This document shows, in pieces, positions 6,641 through 57,157 of a stretch of 64,000 nt of DNA. How positions within the stretch are numbered: the first letter of the stretch is position 1; each line of letters begins with the position of its first letter. A model generated the notes under the pieces. The model worked only from the letters and a program-made list of their open reading frames with translations, was not told where the DNA came from and made no database searches. The stretch is taken from NCBI GenBank assembly GCA_964016885.1, contig OZ024766.1, positions 11,346,001 to 11,410,000 on the forward strand, written 5' to 3'. The DNA is from Eledone cirrhosa. Its lineage: Eukaryota. The position numbers were made by a program, and so were the translations under genes.

Positions 6641-6698
6641 TATTTTATCTGATGAAAGCACACAAGATCTTTGTCCTTGAAATACGTATAATGAAATA
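6641..6698 (+). ncRNA. Type I hammerhead ribozyme motif (family B), within a PLE-like AT-rich element spanning about 6570-7186
   Basis: Helix I TATTTTAT(6641-48)/ATGAAATA(6691-98); CTGATGA at 6649-55; helix II AAG.ACA/TGT.CTT; GAAA at 6679-82; palindromic helix III ATACGTAT; predicted cleavage after AUA (6690). Confidence 0.72.
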
Positions 6699-6788
6699 AA
6701 TATGGTATTATAAATGATATTTTCCATTTATTAATATTGTTAATATTAATAATACTCCAGATAACTCTGTAGAGTGCTTCTAATCAAC

Positions 6789-8974: not shown

Positions 8975-9175
8975 GTGGTGCTACAACAGGTGGGGCTCCT
9001 GGCTGGCAACAAACACCAAATAGCCAGGTGCCTTCGTCACCCAAGAAACAACAACAACAACAACCCCAGTCAGGTGCCACACAGACGACACATAAAGCAG
9101 CTTTTGGCCCCGGTTCTGGGCCTGGCCCGAGTGTTATTGGGAGCAGAGATGATAGAGGGACTCGTAAGCCTTTTG
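8975..9175 (+). CDS. GAK: GAK/auxilin exon (201 nt)
   Basis: Acceptor TTTGTATTTTCAG, donor G|GTAAGG at 9176; phase 1/1; ends SVIGSRDDRGTRKPF, resembling the vertebrate GAK/auxilin SVIG.REERG...P.F segment. Confidence 0.88.
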
Positions 9176-9990: not shown

Positions 9991-10116
9991 GCGATATGAC
10001 TGACAATCAAATGTTGAATGCCCCCCACTCCCCCCGTCCGTCCCGTCCCTTTCTCGAGCTAAACTAACAAAGGAACAACCTCTCATCTTCTCCCTCGGAA
10101 CTTCCATTCATTCCAG

Positions 10117-10256
10117 GTCCCAAACCTAAAGTCGGTACAGACACATTTGGAGATCTCCTCGGAGGGTTCACTTCCAGGAAGCCCAATGAACCGCGCACAA
10201 TTGGAGAGATGAGGAAGGACGTGCTAGCCAAAGAGATGGACCCGGACAAACTAAAG
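10117..10256 (+). CDS. GAK: GAK/auxilin exon (140 nt) preceding the J domain
   Basis: Acceptor TTCATTCCAG, donor AAG|GTAACC; phase 1/0; encodes GPKPKVGTDTFGDLLGGFTSRKPNEPRTIGEMRKDVLAKEMDPDKLK, matching the GAK pattern KPKV...F.DLL..GF....P.TI.EMRK..LAK..DP.KLK. Confidence 0.93.
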
Positions 10257-10276
10257 GTAACCATAGATGACCCCTT

Positions 10277-10653: not shown

Positions 10654-10732
10654 CTAATATATCCCTTCCATATACTGTACTGATTGTGTTGTTATTTCTA
10701 TTTACCTTTTACATATATATATATATATATAT

Positions 10733-10896
10733 ATAGCAGAGTATAACAGTTTTAATATAGATGAGATTCTACAGGACTAGAACTGTTTCATTCATTAGAA
10801 ATCATCAGGAATATGGATTCCTGATGATTTCTAATGAATGAAACAGTTCTAGTCCTGTAGAATCTCATCTATATTAAAACTGTTATACTCTGCTAT
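10733..10896. repeat. Perfect inverted repeat: 80-bp arms with a 4-nt loop
   Basis: 10733-10812 is the exact reverse complement of 10817-10896; loop ATGG. Confidence 0.97.
10816..10864 (+). ncRNA. Type I hammerhead ribozyme motif (family C)
   Basis: Helix I GATTC(10816-20)/GAATC(10860-64); CTGATGA at 10821-27; helix II TTC/GAA with a U-U base; GAAA at 10840-43; helix III ACAG/CTGT around loop TTCTAGTC; predicted cleavage after GUA (10859). Confidence 0.72.
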
Positions 10897-10947
10897 GTAT
10901 TGAGTACCTTACTTACTGTGGTTACCGCCGATTCAACCCGGAATAAC

Positions 10948-11036
<89 letters not shown>

Positions 11037-11038
<2 letters not shown>

Positions 11039-11913
11039 GGGTGTGGACGACATCTGTTTGCAATTTTCAACTGCTAATTTTATGCAAATTGTTTTTACTT
11101 CCGTTGTCACTCTTGTCTTCATAAAAACAGTGACTATATTTCCATTATTTATTTTCAGAATAATTGATTATGAATAATTTTGAACCTCCAAATTTGTGGA
11201 AGAGACACGGAGTTCTTCTTGGAATCCGTGCCGGGAGGACAAATAAGACCAGAAGATCAACTCCCAGAACAACAGGTGGCTCGCTGTCTCATCCAAAGAC
11301 GTGCCCAGAGTCATGCAAACAAAGTTTCCAGTGACAACATTGGTCTTAGGTGTCGTCAGCAGTCAAGGTGACGTCATGCCATCTCACTTCTTCCCTGAGA
11401 GCCTCAAGCTGAACACCGATGGCTACATCCGCGTTCTGAGCGAGGTAGTAAAGCCCTGGATCGACCAGGTAGCTGCAGGTAGGCCGTACGTGTGGCAGCA
11501 AGACTCAGCGCTCTGCCATACCAGCCGAAAGACCCAAGCCTGGCTGTCAGCCACACTTCATCTGACATCTGGCCTCCCAGCTCGCCTGATTACAACCCCC
11601 TCGACTTCTTTGTGTGGGGCGCAGTGGAACGAGACACCAACAGATCTAGCTGCAATACGAAAGATGATCTGAAGGTCAGGATCACAAGTGCCTTTAGGGG
11701 CCTAAGTCGGGGGGACAGTGACGAAGGCCTGTAGCTGGTTCCGAGGCCGCCTTGATGCCCTCATCAAAGCCAATGGCGGGTTTATCGAGTGAGATCGAAA
11801 GAACAAGTCATGAAGACAAACTGACCCAAGTTTGATAAATATATCTTAAAAAATAAAACTACTGTGTTACTTTTTCCTAGACAGTAATATTGCGAACAGA
11901 TATCGTCCGCACC

Positions 11914-11916
<3 letters not shown>
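11037..11916 (+). mobile_element. Internally deleted Tc1/mariner-superfamily transposon, maT/DD37D-like
   Basis: 28-bp TIRs (T)AGGGTGTGGACGACATCTGTTTGCAAT / ATTGCGAACAGATATCGTCCGCACCCTG (24/28 match), inserted in (TA)n. Frameshifted transposase with VWQQDSA.CH and WPPSSPDYNPLDFFVW motifs. Confidence 0.9.
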
Positions 11917-12607: not shown

Positions 12608-12643
12608 GTATATATAATGAGTGTATATTTGTTTGTGTTGCAG

Positions 12644-12820
12644 ATCATGGAGTGGATAAAGGGTAAAGAACGCAACATCCGTGCACTTCTGTGTTCGCTG
12701 CACACCGTATTGTGGGAGGAAGAAACCCGCTGGAGGGAATGTGGAATGCATGAACTCGTTACACCTGACCAGGTGAAAAAGGTATACAGGAAAGCTGTCC
12801 TATCCGTGCATCCAGACAAG
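12644..12820 (+). CDS. GAK: GAK/auxilin J-domain exon (177 nt)
   Basis: Acceptor TTTGTGTTGCAG, donor AAG|GTGAGA; phase 0/0; encodes [59 protein letters not shown], the auxilin-type J domain with its HPD motif. Confidence 0.97.
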
Positions 12821-12877
12821 GTGAGAGCAGTTTTTAAAGTGTTTATATTTCTCTAAAGACCTTCCATCATAGTTTTA

Positions 12878-15019
12878 TGTGGTCATGCAGGTGTCCCAAC
12901 AAAAGGCTCCCAGTCCACACTGTAAAGTGTTTGTGTAGATGTCATGACAAAAAGCACCCAGTCCACACTGTAAAGTGGTCATGTAGGTGTCGCGACAAAA
13001 AGCACCCAGTCCACACTGTAAAGTGGTCATGTAGGAGACATGACAAAAAGACACCCAGTCCACACTGTAAAGTGGTCATGTAGGTGTCACAGCAAAAAAC
13101 ACCCAGTCCACACTGTAAAGTGGTCATGTAGGTGTCACAGCAAAAAGCACCCAGTCCACACTGTAAAGTGGTCATTTAGATGTCATGACAAAAAGCACCC
13201 AGTCCACACTGTAAAGTGGTCATGTAGGTGTCACGACAAAAACCACCCAGTCCACACTGTAAAGTGGTCATGTAGGTGTCACAACAAAAAGCACCCAGTC
13301 GACACTGTAAAGTGGTCATGTAGGTGTCGCAACAAAAAGTACCCAGTCCACACTGTAAAGTGGTCATGTAGGTGTCAACAAAAAGACACCCAGTCCACAC
13401 TGTAAAGAGGTCATGTAGGTGTCATAACAAAAAGCACCCAGTCCACACTGTAAAGAGGTCATGTAGGTGTCATAACAAAAAGCACCCAGTCCACACTGTA
13501 AAGTGGTCATGTAGGTGTCACGACAAAAAGCACCCAGTCCACACTGTAAAGTGGTCATGTAGGTGTCACAACAAAAAGCACCCAGTCGACACTGTAAAGT
13601 GGTCATGTAGGTGTCACGACAAAAAGCACCCAGTCCACACTGTAAAGTGGTCATGTAGGTGTCACAACAAAAAGCACCCAGTCGACACTGTAAAGTGGTC
13701 ATGTAGGTGTCGCAACAAAAAGCACCCAGTCCACACTGTAAAGTGGTCATGTAGGTGTCGCAACAAAAAGCACCCAGTCCACACTGTAAAGTGGTCATGT
13801 AGGTGTCACAACAAAAAGACACCAAGTTCACACTGTAAAGTGGTCATGTAGGTGTCACAACAAAAAGACACCCAGTCCACACTGTAAAGTGGTCATGTAG
13901 GTGTCACAGCAAAAAGCACCCAGTCCACACTGTAAAGTGGTCATGTAGGTGTCACAACAAAAGACACCCAGTCCACACTGTAAAGTGGTCATGTAGGTGT
14001 CACAGTAAAAAGCACCCTGTCCACACTGTAAAGTGGTCATGTAGGTGTCACAGCAAAAAGCACCCTGTCCACGCTGTAAAGTGGTCATGTAGGTGTCACA
14101 GCAAAAAGCACCCAGTTGATACTGTAAAGTGGTCATGTAGGTGTCACAGCAAAAAGCACCCTGTCCACACTGTAAAGTGGTCATGTAGGTGTCACAGCAA
14201 AAAGCACCCTGTCCACACTGTAAAGTGGTCATGTAGGTGTCACAGCAAAAAGCACCCAGTCGATACTGTAAAGTGGTCATGTAGGTGTCACAGCAAAAAG
14301 CACCCAGTCGATACTGTAAAGTGGTCATGTAGGTGTCACAACAAAAGACACCCAGTCCACACTGTAAAGTGGTCATGTAGGTGTCACAGCAAAAAGCACC
14401 CTGTCCACACTGTAAAGAGGTCATGTAGGTGTCACAACAAAAGACACCCAGTCCACACTGTAAAGTGGTCATGTAGGTGTCACAGTAAAAAGCACCCTGT
14501 CCACACTGTAAAGTGGTCATGTAGGTGTCACAGCAAAAAGCACCCTGTCCACACTGTAAAGTGGTCATGTAGGTGTCACAGCAAAAAGCACCCAGTCGAT
14601 ACTGTAAAGTGGTCATGTAGGTGTCACAACAAAAGACACCCAGTCCACACTGTAAAGTGGTCATGTAGGTGTCACAGCAAAAAGCACCCTGTCCACACTG
14701 TAAAGTGGTCATGTAGGTGTCACAGCAAAAAGCACCCAGTCCACACTGTAAAGTGGTCATGTAGGTGTCACAGCAAAAAGCACCCAGTCCACACTGTAAA
14801 GTGGTCATGTAGGTGTCACAACAAAAAGCACCCAGTCCACACTGTAAAGTGGTCATGTAGGTGTCACAGCAAAAAGCACCCAGTCTACACTGTAAAGTGG
14901 TCATGTAGGTGTCACAGCAAAAAGTACCCAGTCCACACTGTAAAGTGGTCATGTAGGTGTCACAGCAAAAAGCACCCAGTCCACACTGTAAAGTGGTCAT
15001 GTAGGTGTCTTGACAAAAA
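12878..15019. repeat. 48-bp minisatellite, about 44 copies, inverted relative to 2549-5532
   Basis: Unit CCCAGTCCACACTGTAAAGTGGTCATGTAGGTGTCACAGCAAAAAGCA. Confidence 0.97.
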
Positions 15020-15088
15020 GTATGAATTTCAACCGGCGAGGTTGTCTTTTTTCTGTGTATGTCAATATTTATTTATAAAACAAATCTG

Positions 15089-15154
15089 TATTTTATCTGA
15101 TGAAAGCGCACCATAATTTACCTTGGTCGCCCTTGAAATATATATAATAAAATA
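15089..15154 (+). ncRNA. Type I hammerhead ribozyme motif (family B, second copy; element extends to about 15290)
   Basis: Helix I TATTTTAT/ATAAAATA (8 Watson-Crick pairs); CTGATGA at 15097-103; helix II AAG.GC.ACCA/TGGT.GC.CTT; GAAA at 15135-38; palindrome ATATATAT; predicted cleavage after 15146. Confidence 0.72.
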
Positions 15155-15442
15155 ATTATGGTTTTATAAATATAGTTTCCATTTATTAATATATTGTATA
15201 TTTACTCCACTAATCTGTTGAGTGCTTTATATCAGTTATAAAAAATGTTAAGCTTGTTGAATCCCAACAAATTAAATATAACCTCTGCATATATATATAT
15301 ATATATATATCCATATCCAAAATTAAGATAAATTAAATGAATTTAATCTAAATCAAAATTATGGGTGTCATGCCAGAAAGACATGTGCCATATCACCCGG
15401 AAAATAAGCTCCAAGATTCTAACGAGTAGGTCCGAGTATTTT

Positions 15443-15729
15443 ATAATAACTAGAAATTGATTAACATATATATAAACATGAATAATCACAGGAGATAATT
15501 TATACAAGTGTGTAACCACACATAGCTAGGTAGGTAACTAAATAAAGTTGACCAGAACTTCAAAAATAGATACCTTATAATATGATTAATCATATAAGGT
15601 ATCTATTTTTGAAGTTCTGGTCAACTTTATTTAGTTACCTACCTAGCTATGTGTAGTTACACACCTGTATAAATTATCTCCTGTGATTATTCATGTTTAT
15701 ATATATGTTAATCAATTTCTAGTTATTAT
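15443..15729. repeat. Near-perfect 287-bp palindrome
   Basis: Arms of about 142 bp centred on TATGATT|AATCATA, with two mismatches and a 3-nt bulge. Confidence 0.95.
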
Positions 15730-16242: not shown

Positions 16243-16304
16243 ATATATATGTGTCTGTGTGGTGTTATCTAAATGTTATATTCGGTCTTCTTTTGTATTT
16301 GCAG

Positions 16305-16406
16305 CTGACAGGGACCCCACATGAAGCTTTAGCGAAGTTAATATTTATGGAACTAAATGATGCTTGGGCAGAGTTTGAAGAGAAAGGGATGCAATCGTTG
16401 TACTAG
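16305..16406 (+). CDS. GAK: GAK/auxilin terminal coding exon
   Basis: Acceptor TTTTGTATTTGCAG; encodes [33 protein letters not shown], with TAG at 16404-16406. This is the conserved auxilin C-terminus ([12 protein letters not shown]) and is absent from the ORF track. Confidence 0.96.
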
Positions 16407-26530: not shown

Positions 26531-26637
26531 GGGGATGATTTTCCTCGGATTCAATGGGGGGGGGGGGGGGGGGGGTAACCACAGTAAGTAAGGCACTCAA
26601 TATATTAGAGTGTAAAGAGCAAAATTGCTATATATAT

Positions 26638-38231: not shown

Positions 38232-38381
38232 TCATTAGAGCTTTCCAGATGATTTCTTTCCTCTGAATGAAACAGTTCTAGTCCTGTGGAAGCCATCTCT
38301 ATATTAAATGTTGTTATATATACTCTACTAATGTATTGAGTACTTTTCTTACTGAGGTTACTCCTGATTGAACCTGGGACT
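38232..38381 (+). mobile_element. Family C PLE-like fragment with a mutated hammerhead
   Basis: Colinear with 10817-10945; core CAGATGA (U4>A) and site GUG are both predicted to inactivate. Confidence 0.7.
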
Positions 38382-57089: not shown

Positions 57090-57157
57090 TTTTAATATAG
57101 AAATGGCTTCTACAGGACTAGAACTGTTTCATTTGAAGGAAATCATCAGAGCAAGAG
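57090..57157 (-). mobile_element. Family C PLE-like fragment with hammerhead core, between (TA)n tracts
   Basis: Minus strand CTGATGA-TTTCCTTCAAAT-GAA-ACAG-TTCTAGTC-CTGT-A-GAAGC; helix I is degenerate. Confidence 0.65.

Follow-up and report, generated by a model that had tools for sequence, protein, structure and literature searches.

The window analyzed here is a 64,000-nt stretch of Eledone cirrhosa DNA (assembly GCA_964016885.1, contig OZ024766.1, positions 11,346,001 to 11,410,000 of the forward strand). A tblastn search with octopod GAK proteins placed exons of this gene on the plus strand at about 69-1061, 2199-2327, 9094-9171, 10104-10259, 12638-12832 and 16302-16403. Two of them enclose the structure under study: an upstream exon at 10104-10259 (83-85 % identity) and a downstream exon, at about 12638-12832 by tblastn and delimited as 12644-12820 in the map of the unit, which is 90-92 % identical to Octopus and Argonauta GAK and contains the start of the J-domain, with a Pfam DnaJ score below the curated cut-off. 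Because GAK exons lie on the plus strand on both sides, the unit between them sits in a sense intron.

This unit is a palindrome between two (TA)n tracts. Its two arms (10733-10812 and 10817-10896) match as reverse complements at all 80 positions and enclose a loop of 4 nt. The first mismatch is at 10732/10897, and 10733-10896 was the top result of an inverted-repeat search of the window. The preliminary description had reported exactly this perfect 80-bp fold-back and its position between (TA)n tracts, and both points hold. In an element numbering with q1 at 10817, the unit starts in the left (TA)n tract (10713-10735), a target microsatellite of the kind that family ends abut at most loci, followed on the minus strand by a short, tail-less inverted arm (10733-10812, q1-q80), which ends in TAT and thereby merges into the tract. 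The junction ATGG (10813-10816), delimited by comparison with full-length copies, leads into the long arm on the plus strand (10816-10948), which aligns with q0-q132 of the pLTR of a young Penelope-like element (PLE). Base 10816 is the element's own G (q0), whereas the G at 10815, where the element has an A, is a candidate for a cap-derived or untemplated base. The last part of the long arm (10882-10948, q66-q132) lies between two 3' end points that are common in the family and is referred to here as the tail. Compared with the pLTR upstream of the full-length open frame at locus L054, the long arm differs at 1 of 132 positions. On the nature of the unit, the preliminary description was right: the hammerhead is of the PLE type, has an inverted 5' pLTR beside it and lies in an intron of GAK in sense orientation.

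To the right, a (TA)n-rich tract (10949-11038) is followed by an unrelated element. This TIR-bounded fragment (11039-11916), found in the inverted-repeat search directly after the unit in the TA tract, has a transposase-like frame without a Pfam match, which we take to be Tc1/mariner-like from its motifs. On the minus strand at 26571-26615, the PLE family of the unit has left a further trace of 85 % identity, which consists of the tail alone.

A descriptor scan recognized a type I hammerhead motif on the plus strand at 10815-10865, while the same scan gave a mean of 0 matches in 20 doublet shuffles of the window. Helix I pairs 10815-10820 with 10860-10865 (6 bp including a terminal G-U), the core CUGAUGA occupies 10821-10827, helix II consists of a U-U and 3 bp and is followed by GAAA, and helix III has 4 bp with an 8-nt loop. 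The GUA at 10857-10859 completes the conserved type I core (CUGANGA, GAAA, NUH), and the cut is predicted after A10859. The three helices, the core and the GUA site thus agree with what had been called a complete hammerhead, but three observations qualify this term: the 10.1-11.1 pair is U-U instead of G-C, invariantly so in 32 of 32 aligned rows; no Rfam hammerhead family matched 10800-10950 at E<=10; and the isolated arm reaches about -4.7 to -4.9 kcal/mol in the hammerhead fold, slightly worse than its minimum of -5.6, which is a different fold. A Rfam search of the whole window gave 403 matches, and nearly all of the 150 listed were to miRNA models and driven by microsatellites. The idea that either strand encodes a hammerhead stood in part, as the minus strand contains the same core from 10808, but there helix I has just 4 bp.

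Comparison of subfamilies points to constraint on this structure. In an alignment of 32 rows, from which L019 (2-nt insertion) was left out and to which the window arm was added, three of the six helix I pairs change on both sides, one of these from a single sequence. Paired cells make up 95.9 % of helix I, compared with 90.2 % after shuffling and 34-48 % in slid controls. Given the relatedness of the rows, the covariation amounts to few events, and six old rows are shifted by one base relative to the others. No double changes occur in helices II and III, which are conserved, and among 63 variants of the helix II segment the stem is kept while the four loop bases vary. Judged from these patterns, the motif is constrained within the family. 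A hammerhead-like function is plausible despite the U-U, with the departure from canonical membership located at G10.1-C11.1. The metazoan PLE hammerheads with published tests were weak or protein-assisted (PMC4209133, PMC11167929). Inspection by eye for signs of cleavage in vivo pointed to one locus, L171, where an arm starts at the predicted cut site and is joined to its partner through helix I microhomology; a cleavage product and the 7-nt microhomology explain this junction equally well.

A genome search with the long arm returned 40 scored copies of 89-100 % identity, and at least 19 of them, among the matches listed, have an inverted arm next to them. From an ORF fragment adjoining one of the copies, many long open frames were reached. 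In all ten loci fetched, the hammerhead arm is directly upstream of a 758-aa open frame (920 aa in one), and in most of them the arm recurs about 5 kb downstream. Inverted arm copies are also found upstream in these loci (L051-L060), with ends at q65 or q132. The distance between the 5' and 3' ribozyme arms is 4.9-5.4 kb in L051, L053 and L054, and the ATG follows the ribozyme after ~180 nt. In the full-length elements at L051-L060, ~2.5 kb of TA/TG microsatellite-rich sequence separates the ORF from the 3' pLTR.

The protein model of the open frame has a pLDDT of 86, and its five best fold matches are TERT structures (E about 1e-8). A Pfam search of the 758-aa protein gave no RT or GIY-YIG match. 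PF01541 was matched in 2 of 40 aligned proteins, a degenerate GIY-YIG motif is visible after the linker, and similar Atlas clusters carry GIY-YIG (PF01541) and RT labels. Among 8,000 candidates scored, 1,398 were relatives of the protein; PDB sequence searches with the protein and with a 40-sequence profile found nothing significant. Within the window, Pfam searches of 89 frames detected no PLE ORF, and the pLTR stretch was the sole tblastn match of the PLE protein. Inspection of the translation by eye revealed RWR, DKT, CxCx5C, CxxC and CxH motifs, as in the Hydra clade, and no CCHH. This clade comprises (TA)n-targeting C-terminal EN+ PLEs that carry a hammerhead and are described as 'generally' short, <3 kb (Craig et al., 2021, PMC8557442). 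The parent is a young (TA)n-targeting Penelope-like element with motifs of the Hydra clade. The likeness extends to RWR (RWK-like), DKT, the CxCx5C linker, CxxC and CxH around the conserved E and N, the (TA)n targets and the presence of a hammerhead, whereas the element here has ~5 kb instead of <3 kb, owing to its long microsatellite-rich 3' region, and a very high copy number. The U-U variant may already stand in published drawings of Hydra-clade ribozymes in supplements.

Three other assignments were considered and dropped. The Neptune clade, our first guess, did not agree with the published clade descriptions in Craig et al. (2021, PMC8557442). A non-LTR retrozyme is built of head-to-tail tandem units with a hammerhead in each (bioRxiv 10.64898/2026.07.22.740005), whereas the locus holds a single head-to-head unit and no such tandem. 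A MITE was ruled out by the variable centre and by the parent ORF.

The arrangement seen in the window is widespread. An exact 23-mer of the core occurs 31,535 times genome-wide, and among head-to-head pairs, the spacer has 30-60 nt in 5,809 and 61-90 nt in 356. The first 100 core matches on contig C1 include 51 arms that belong to the young subfamily, of which 20 continue past the TATA box, 26 are paired with an inverted arm and 5 are alone. An inverted partner thus accompanies 26 of the 31 sampled young arms that end near the ribozyme start; most of the junctions sampled were taken from the first part of contig C1 and from loci selected by pattern. Two family patterns show a genome-wide excess of ~2,300-2,900 matches on the forward strand, which may reflect a large tandem array or an amplified segment. 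An old ribozyme-core fragment with near-identical flanks recurs at L061, L065, L066, L067, L073, L082, L095, L098 and L140, and its shared flanks mark it as captured inside another mobile repeat at these nine loci.

These data also bear on the possibility that the palindrome at the locus is a library or assembly chimera, which we consider scarcely credible. It is true that no read or contig spans the locus with unique flank in the sequencing runs examined, four of the 23 listed. A chimera would, however, have to produce arms of unequal length (80 versus 132 nt) and flanks that are not mirror images past the TA tracts, all within an unbroken order of GAK exons. Moreover, head-to-head joints of the family with varied spacers are found in X1 short-read contigs and in raw reads of X21 and X22, two other samples, in which one such joint is covered by 17 and 10 reads, respectively; the X1 and X4 read sets may share their source with the assembly. 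Finally, the same form obeys family-specific rules at thousands of loci.

The first of these rules concerns the 3' ends, which fall mostly at q132 or q55-65 and in most cases abut (TA)n. In 87 pairs, one tail was counted in 79, none in 8 and two in 0, compared with 17.9 two-tail pairs expected if the arms were independent. Alignment identified no long+long combination among 63 pairs, and the window copy is the sole long+intermediate case.

The second rule concerns the 5' ends, which stop sharply at q-1/q0, where helix I begins; this wall was recognized by comparison with full-length copies in subfamily A rows. The distance from the TATA box to helix I is exactly 30 nt in 31 of 37 young-subfamily arms, and a spacing of 29-31 nt is kept in three subfamilies. 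The base in front of the wall is G in 1,999 cases, A in 204 and T in 250, next to 8,388 cases with the templated C; the latter are arms that cross the TATA box, so longer read-through templates are common as well. All 28 sampled G arms depart from the element's upstream sequence at the wall, although in our judgement the G could come from the partner arm or the flank in 12 of them. The GG junction of the window type, with the G one base further in, occurs 1,194 times genome-wide, and the source of the G is ambiguous at 17 of 30 sampled loci. The G test in older subfamilies involves few arms and has no uniform outcome (G in 9 of 19 GG-type arms). An untemplated G is an accepted mark of a capped template in L1 and SVA (PMC4859970). 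In the main texts of open-licence papers, we found no report of a cap-derived G in PLE junctions and none of this octopod family; a TATA+30 wall with G excess and a quantified one-tail rule were likewise not found in open-licence papers, supplements aside.

Taken together, the TATA+30 wall, the G excess and the single tail per pair point to an uncleaved, likely capped sense RNA that is copied from two start sites. The wall could alternatively mark another kind of end, either a 3' splice site or a point at which the reverse transcriptase stops at helix I and adds a terminal C, but this is unlikely. The young subfamily does read pyrimidine tract-CAG at the wall, runs of 2-4 G occur at junctions, and an intron of Penelope in D. 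virilis ends at helix I (PMC4209133). A splice acceptor should, on the other hand, be preceded by a common exon, and the 28 G arms share none; in older subfamilies the AG changes to GG together with its helix I partner; and the TATA box keeps its spacing of 29-31 nt in three subfamilies. On these three grounds, we rejected the splice-acceptor reading. A reverse transcriptase that adds C at any template end would yield the same junction G as a cap.

We are nearly certain that the unit is a short, recent 5'-end insertion of a Penelope-like element and that its mirror arm is a by-product of integration. The best explanation as a whole, a likely one given the regularities of the junctions, is that the two cut strands prime reverse transcription on uncleaved, probably capped element RNA. 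In detail, the pLTR promoter would start transcription at the first base of helix I, so that the hammerhead would form the first ~51 nt of the mRNA. The endonuclease of the element would cut (TA)n, and the two strands would start copying internally, at q132 and usually at q58-65; in the window copy, the second start would lie at q80, aided by TAT microhomology. Both copies would cross the uncut ribozyme to the 5' end of the RNA and gain the cap G, and repair would join the two cDNAs end to end. Start site, cap and cleavage are read here from DNA. We put the chances at about even for the strictest version, namely that a capped, TATA-driven mRNA begins with the hammerhead as its first ~51 nt, that the template is this uncut capped sense RNA, and that two starts yield arms joined at the cap.

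Priming by two strands is also the route that we lean towards as the main source of head-to-head arms. Its chief competitor, which we regard as possible but the weaker candidate, involves a single cDNA that reaches the RNA 5' end and copies itself, with the second arm ending where it rejoins (TA)n; it is related to the self-priming proposal of Arkhipova et al. (2013, PMC3846280), which invoked an antisense template. The one-tail rule is predicted by this route as well. In its favour, subfamily variants are common to both arms of a pair, TATAT at q55-58, where many short arms end, agrees with the target sequence, and a junction equal to a hairpin with a 3-nt loop recurs (17 of 30 loci) and fits such a fold-back equally well. 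The two routes part at the tail-only inverted partners, present in 3 of 132 arms: such a partner could not have templated the other arm, so self-copying is excluded in these cases, or ~2 % of junctions. Some centres are, in addition, palindromic with a 0-1 nt loop and carry a G on both arms (L198, L017), q65 also ends the direct 3' pLTRs of full-length copies, and the tail can be on either end (L051, L053, L057). An antisense template is further opposed by the position of the G at the sense start site.

The preferred reading, with two priming strands on a capped sense RNA, agrees with biochemical data on a PLE protein, which in vitro cuts and extends both strands, starts at two sites that delimit the tail and works preferentially on uncut RNA (PMC11167929). 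In this study, the element PAc (Poseidon, Anolis; Frangieh et al., 2024) resembles the family here in its two internal start sites bounding the tail, in the extension of both target strands, in the AT-rich target and in the uncut RNA template. Differently from the situation here, with the ATG ~180 nt downstream, the ORF of PAc starts inside the ribozyme, and formation of inverted junctions and a cap signature are not described in the main-text parts compared (PMC11167929).

Canonical EN+ PLEs, as described in the main texts of two studies (PMC8557442, PMC3846280), likewise have an inverted, 5'-truncated pLTR copy adjoining the 5' end, a head-to-head junction palindrome, a tail at one end and a hammerhead and TATA box in the pLTR. 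Against this background, the insertions here often consist of just the first 60-130 nt of the transcript, twice; the tail has 67 nt instead of 30-40; and the 5' ends pile up at the base that opens helix I and bear an additional G. The minimal hammerheads of PLEs (Cervera and De la Pena, 2014, PMC4209133) are also of type I, located in pLTRs and dispersed in thousands of copies, whereas helix III has 4 bp here, helix II is short and an invariant U-U replaces G10.1-C11.1. Opposite-strand pairs are about 20-60 nt apart here, compared with 100-700 bp in Schistosoma (PMC4209133). At the family's head-to-head junctions, both arms usually copy the same 5' segment. This differs from L1 twin priming, reported by Ostertag and Kazazian in 2001, in which inversions mostly lack an overlap; there, too, priming on the RNA of the element reportedly takes place on both target strands, with a head-to-head joint between the two cDNAs.

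Earlier publications already contain PLEs with an inverted 5' pLTR, a palindrome at the junction and a tail on one side (PMC8557442, PMC3846280), and pairs of hammerheads on opposite strands have been on record since 2014 (PMC4209133). The contribution of this genome is mechanistic, with the TATA+30 wall, the G excess and the one-tail rule; the single locus, as one young transposon stump, has little weight alone. According to Craig et al. (2021, PMC8557442), tandem and inverted PLE structures result from features of the transposition cycle that have yet to be defined, and the choice between a sense and an antisense template was left open by Arkhipova et al. (2013, PMC3846280). The thousands of junctions in this family represent a test of this open template question: the G excess at the TATA+30 wall and the one-tail rule favour a capped, uncut sense RNA with two start sites and match the in vitro work of 2024 (PMC11167929). 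If this is true, cutting by the hammerhead would decap the element mRNA, antisense self-priming would be replaced as the explanation of head-to-head pLTRs, and a single retroelement would supply octopus RNA editing with thousands of hairpins that are nearly perfect.

Within the pre-mRNA of GAK, the two arms would pair with each other over 80 bp, and the resulting hairpin would mask the ribozyme and be removed together with the intron, without a selected role. The predicted energies, -140.9 kcal/mol for the hairpin of the whole unit versus -4.7 for the hammerhead, are in line with the earlier expectation that the antisense arm blocks folding. The preliminary description went further and saw in this arm a selected mask protecting the GAK pre-mRNA, from which A-to-I editing could release the ribozyme as a switch. 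We consider this highly improbable. The unit does lie in a sense intron, where the hairpin would dominate folding; hyper-editing is high in octopus, and palindromic repeats are edited in frog (PMC5625713). Masking is, however, physically expected, so that selection is not needed. The palindrome is the standard product of the family (5,809 pairs; 26 of 31 young arms), the window copy is very young, and tested metazoan PLE ribozymes are weak or require protein (PMC4209133, PMC11167929). Intronic copies that lack a mask may still be subject to a weak purifying bias.

The GAK introns themselves speak against a protective role. The preliminary description named equally common intact, unprotected sense copies in introns as evidence against its idea, and two intact-looking, dimer-type candidate hammerheads of another repeat family occur in the GAK introns unmasked on the plus strand, at 6649 (within 6641-6779) and 15097 (15089-15227). 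Both are minimal, with a long helix II, a palindromic loop III and an 8-bp helix I, and they are 78 % alike. The next and last GAK intron contains a further fold-back (15443-15729) with 137-bp arms and 2 mismatches, in which the descriptor scan found no hammerhead motif; this repeat is young and abundant (1,239 candidates), has (TA)n ends and extends on one side towards about 15310. The relatives that had been contrasted with the unit are indeed damaged and non-palindromic (38243-38377, 79 % identity, with CAGAUGA; 57090-57149, 85 %, with a broken helix I), but they belong to older subfamilies and lie past the stop codon of GAK, and so cannot serve as intronic controls.

As an ADAR substrate, the hairpin is plausible, and so is its editing in an octopod (PMC5625713); about 5,800 short hairpins could feed ADAR hyper-editing if transcribed. 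Two minor observations concern the other repeats. The second hammerhead repeat family also forms a long+short head-to-head pair, seen in L090. In the last GAK intron, a tandem array of ~48 bp units (12870-15020) is related to a dispersed repeat elsewhere in the window.
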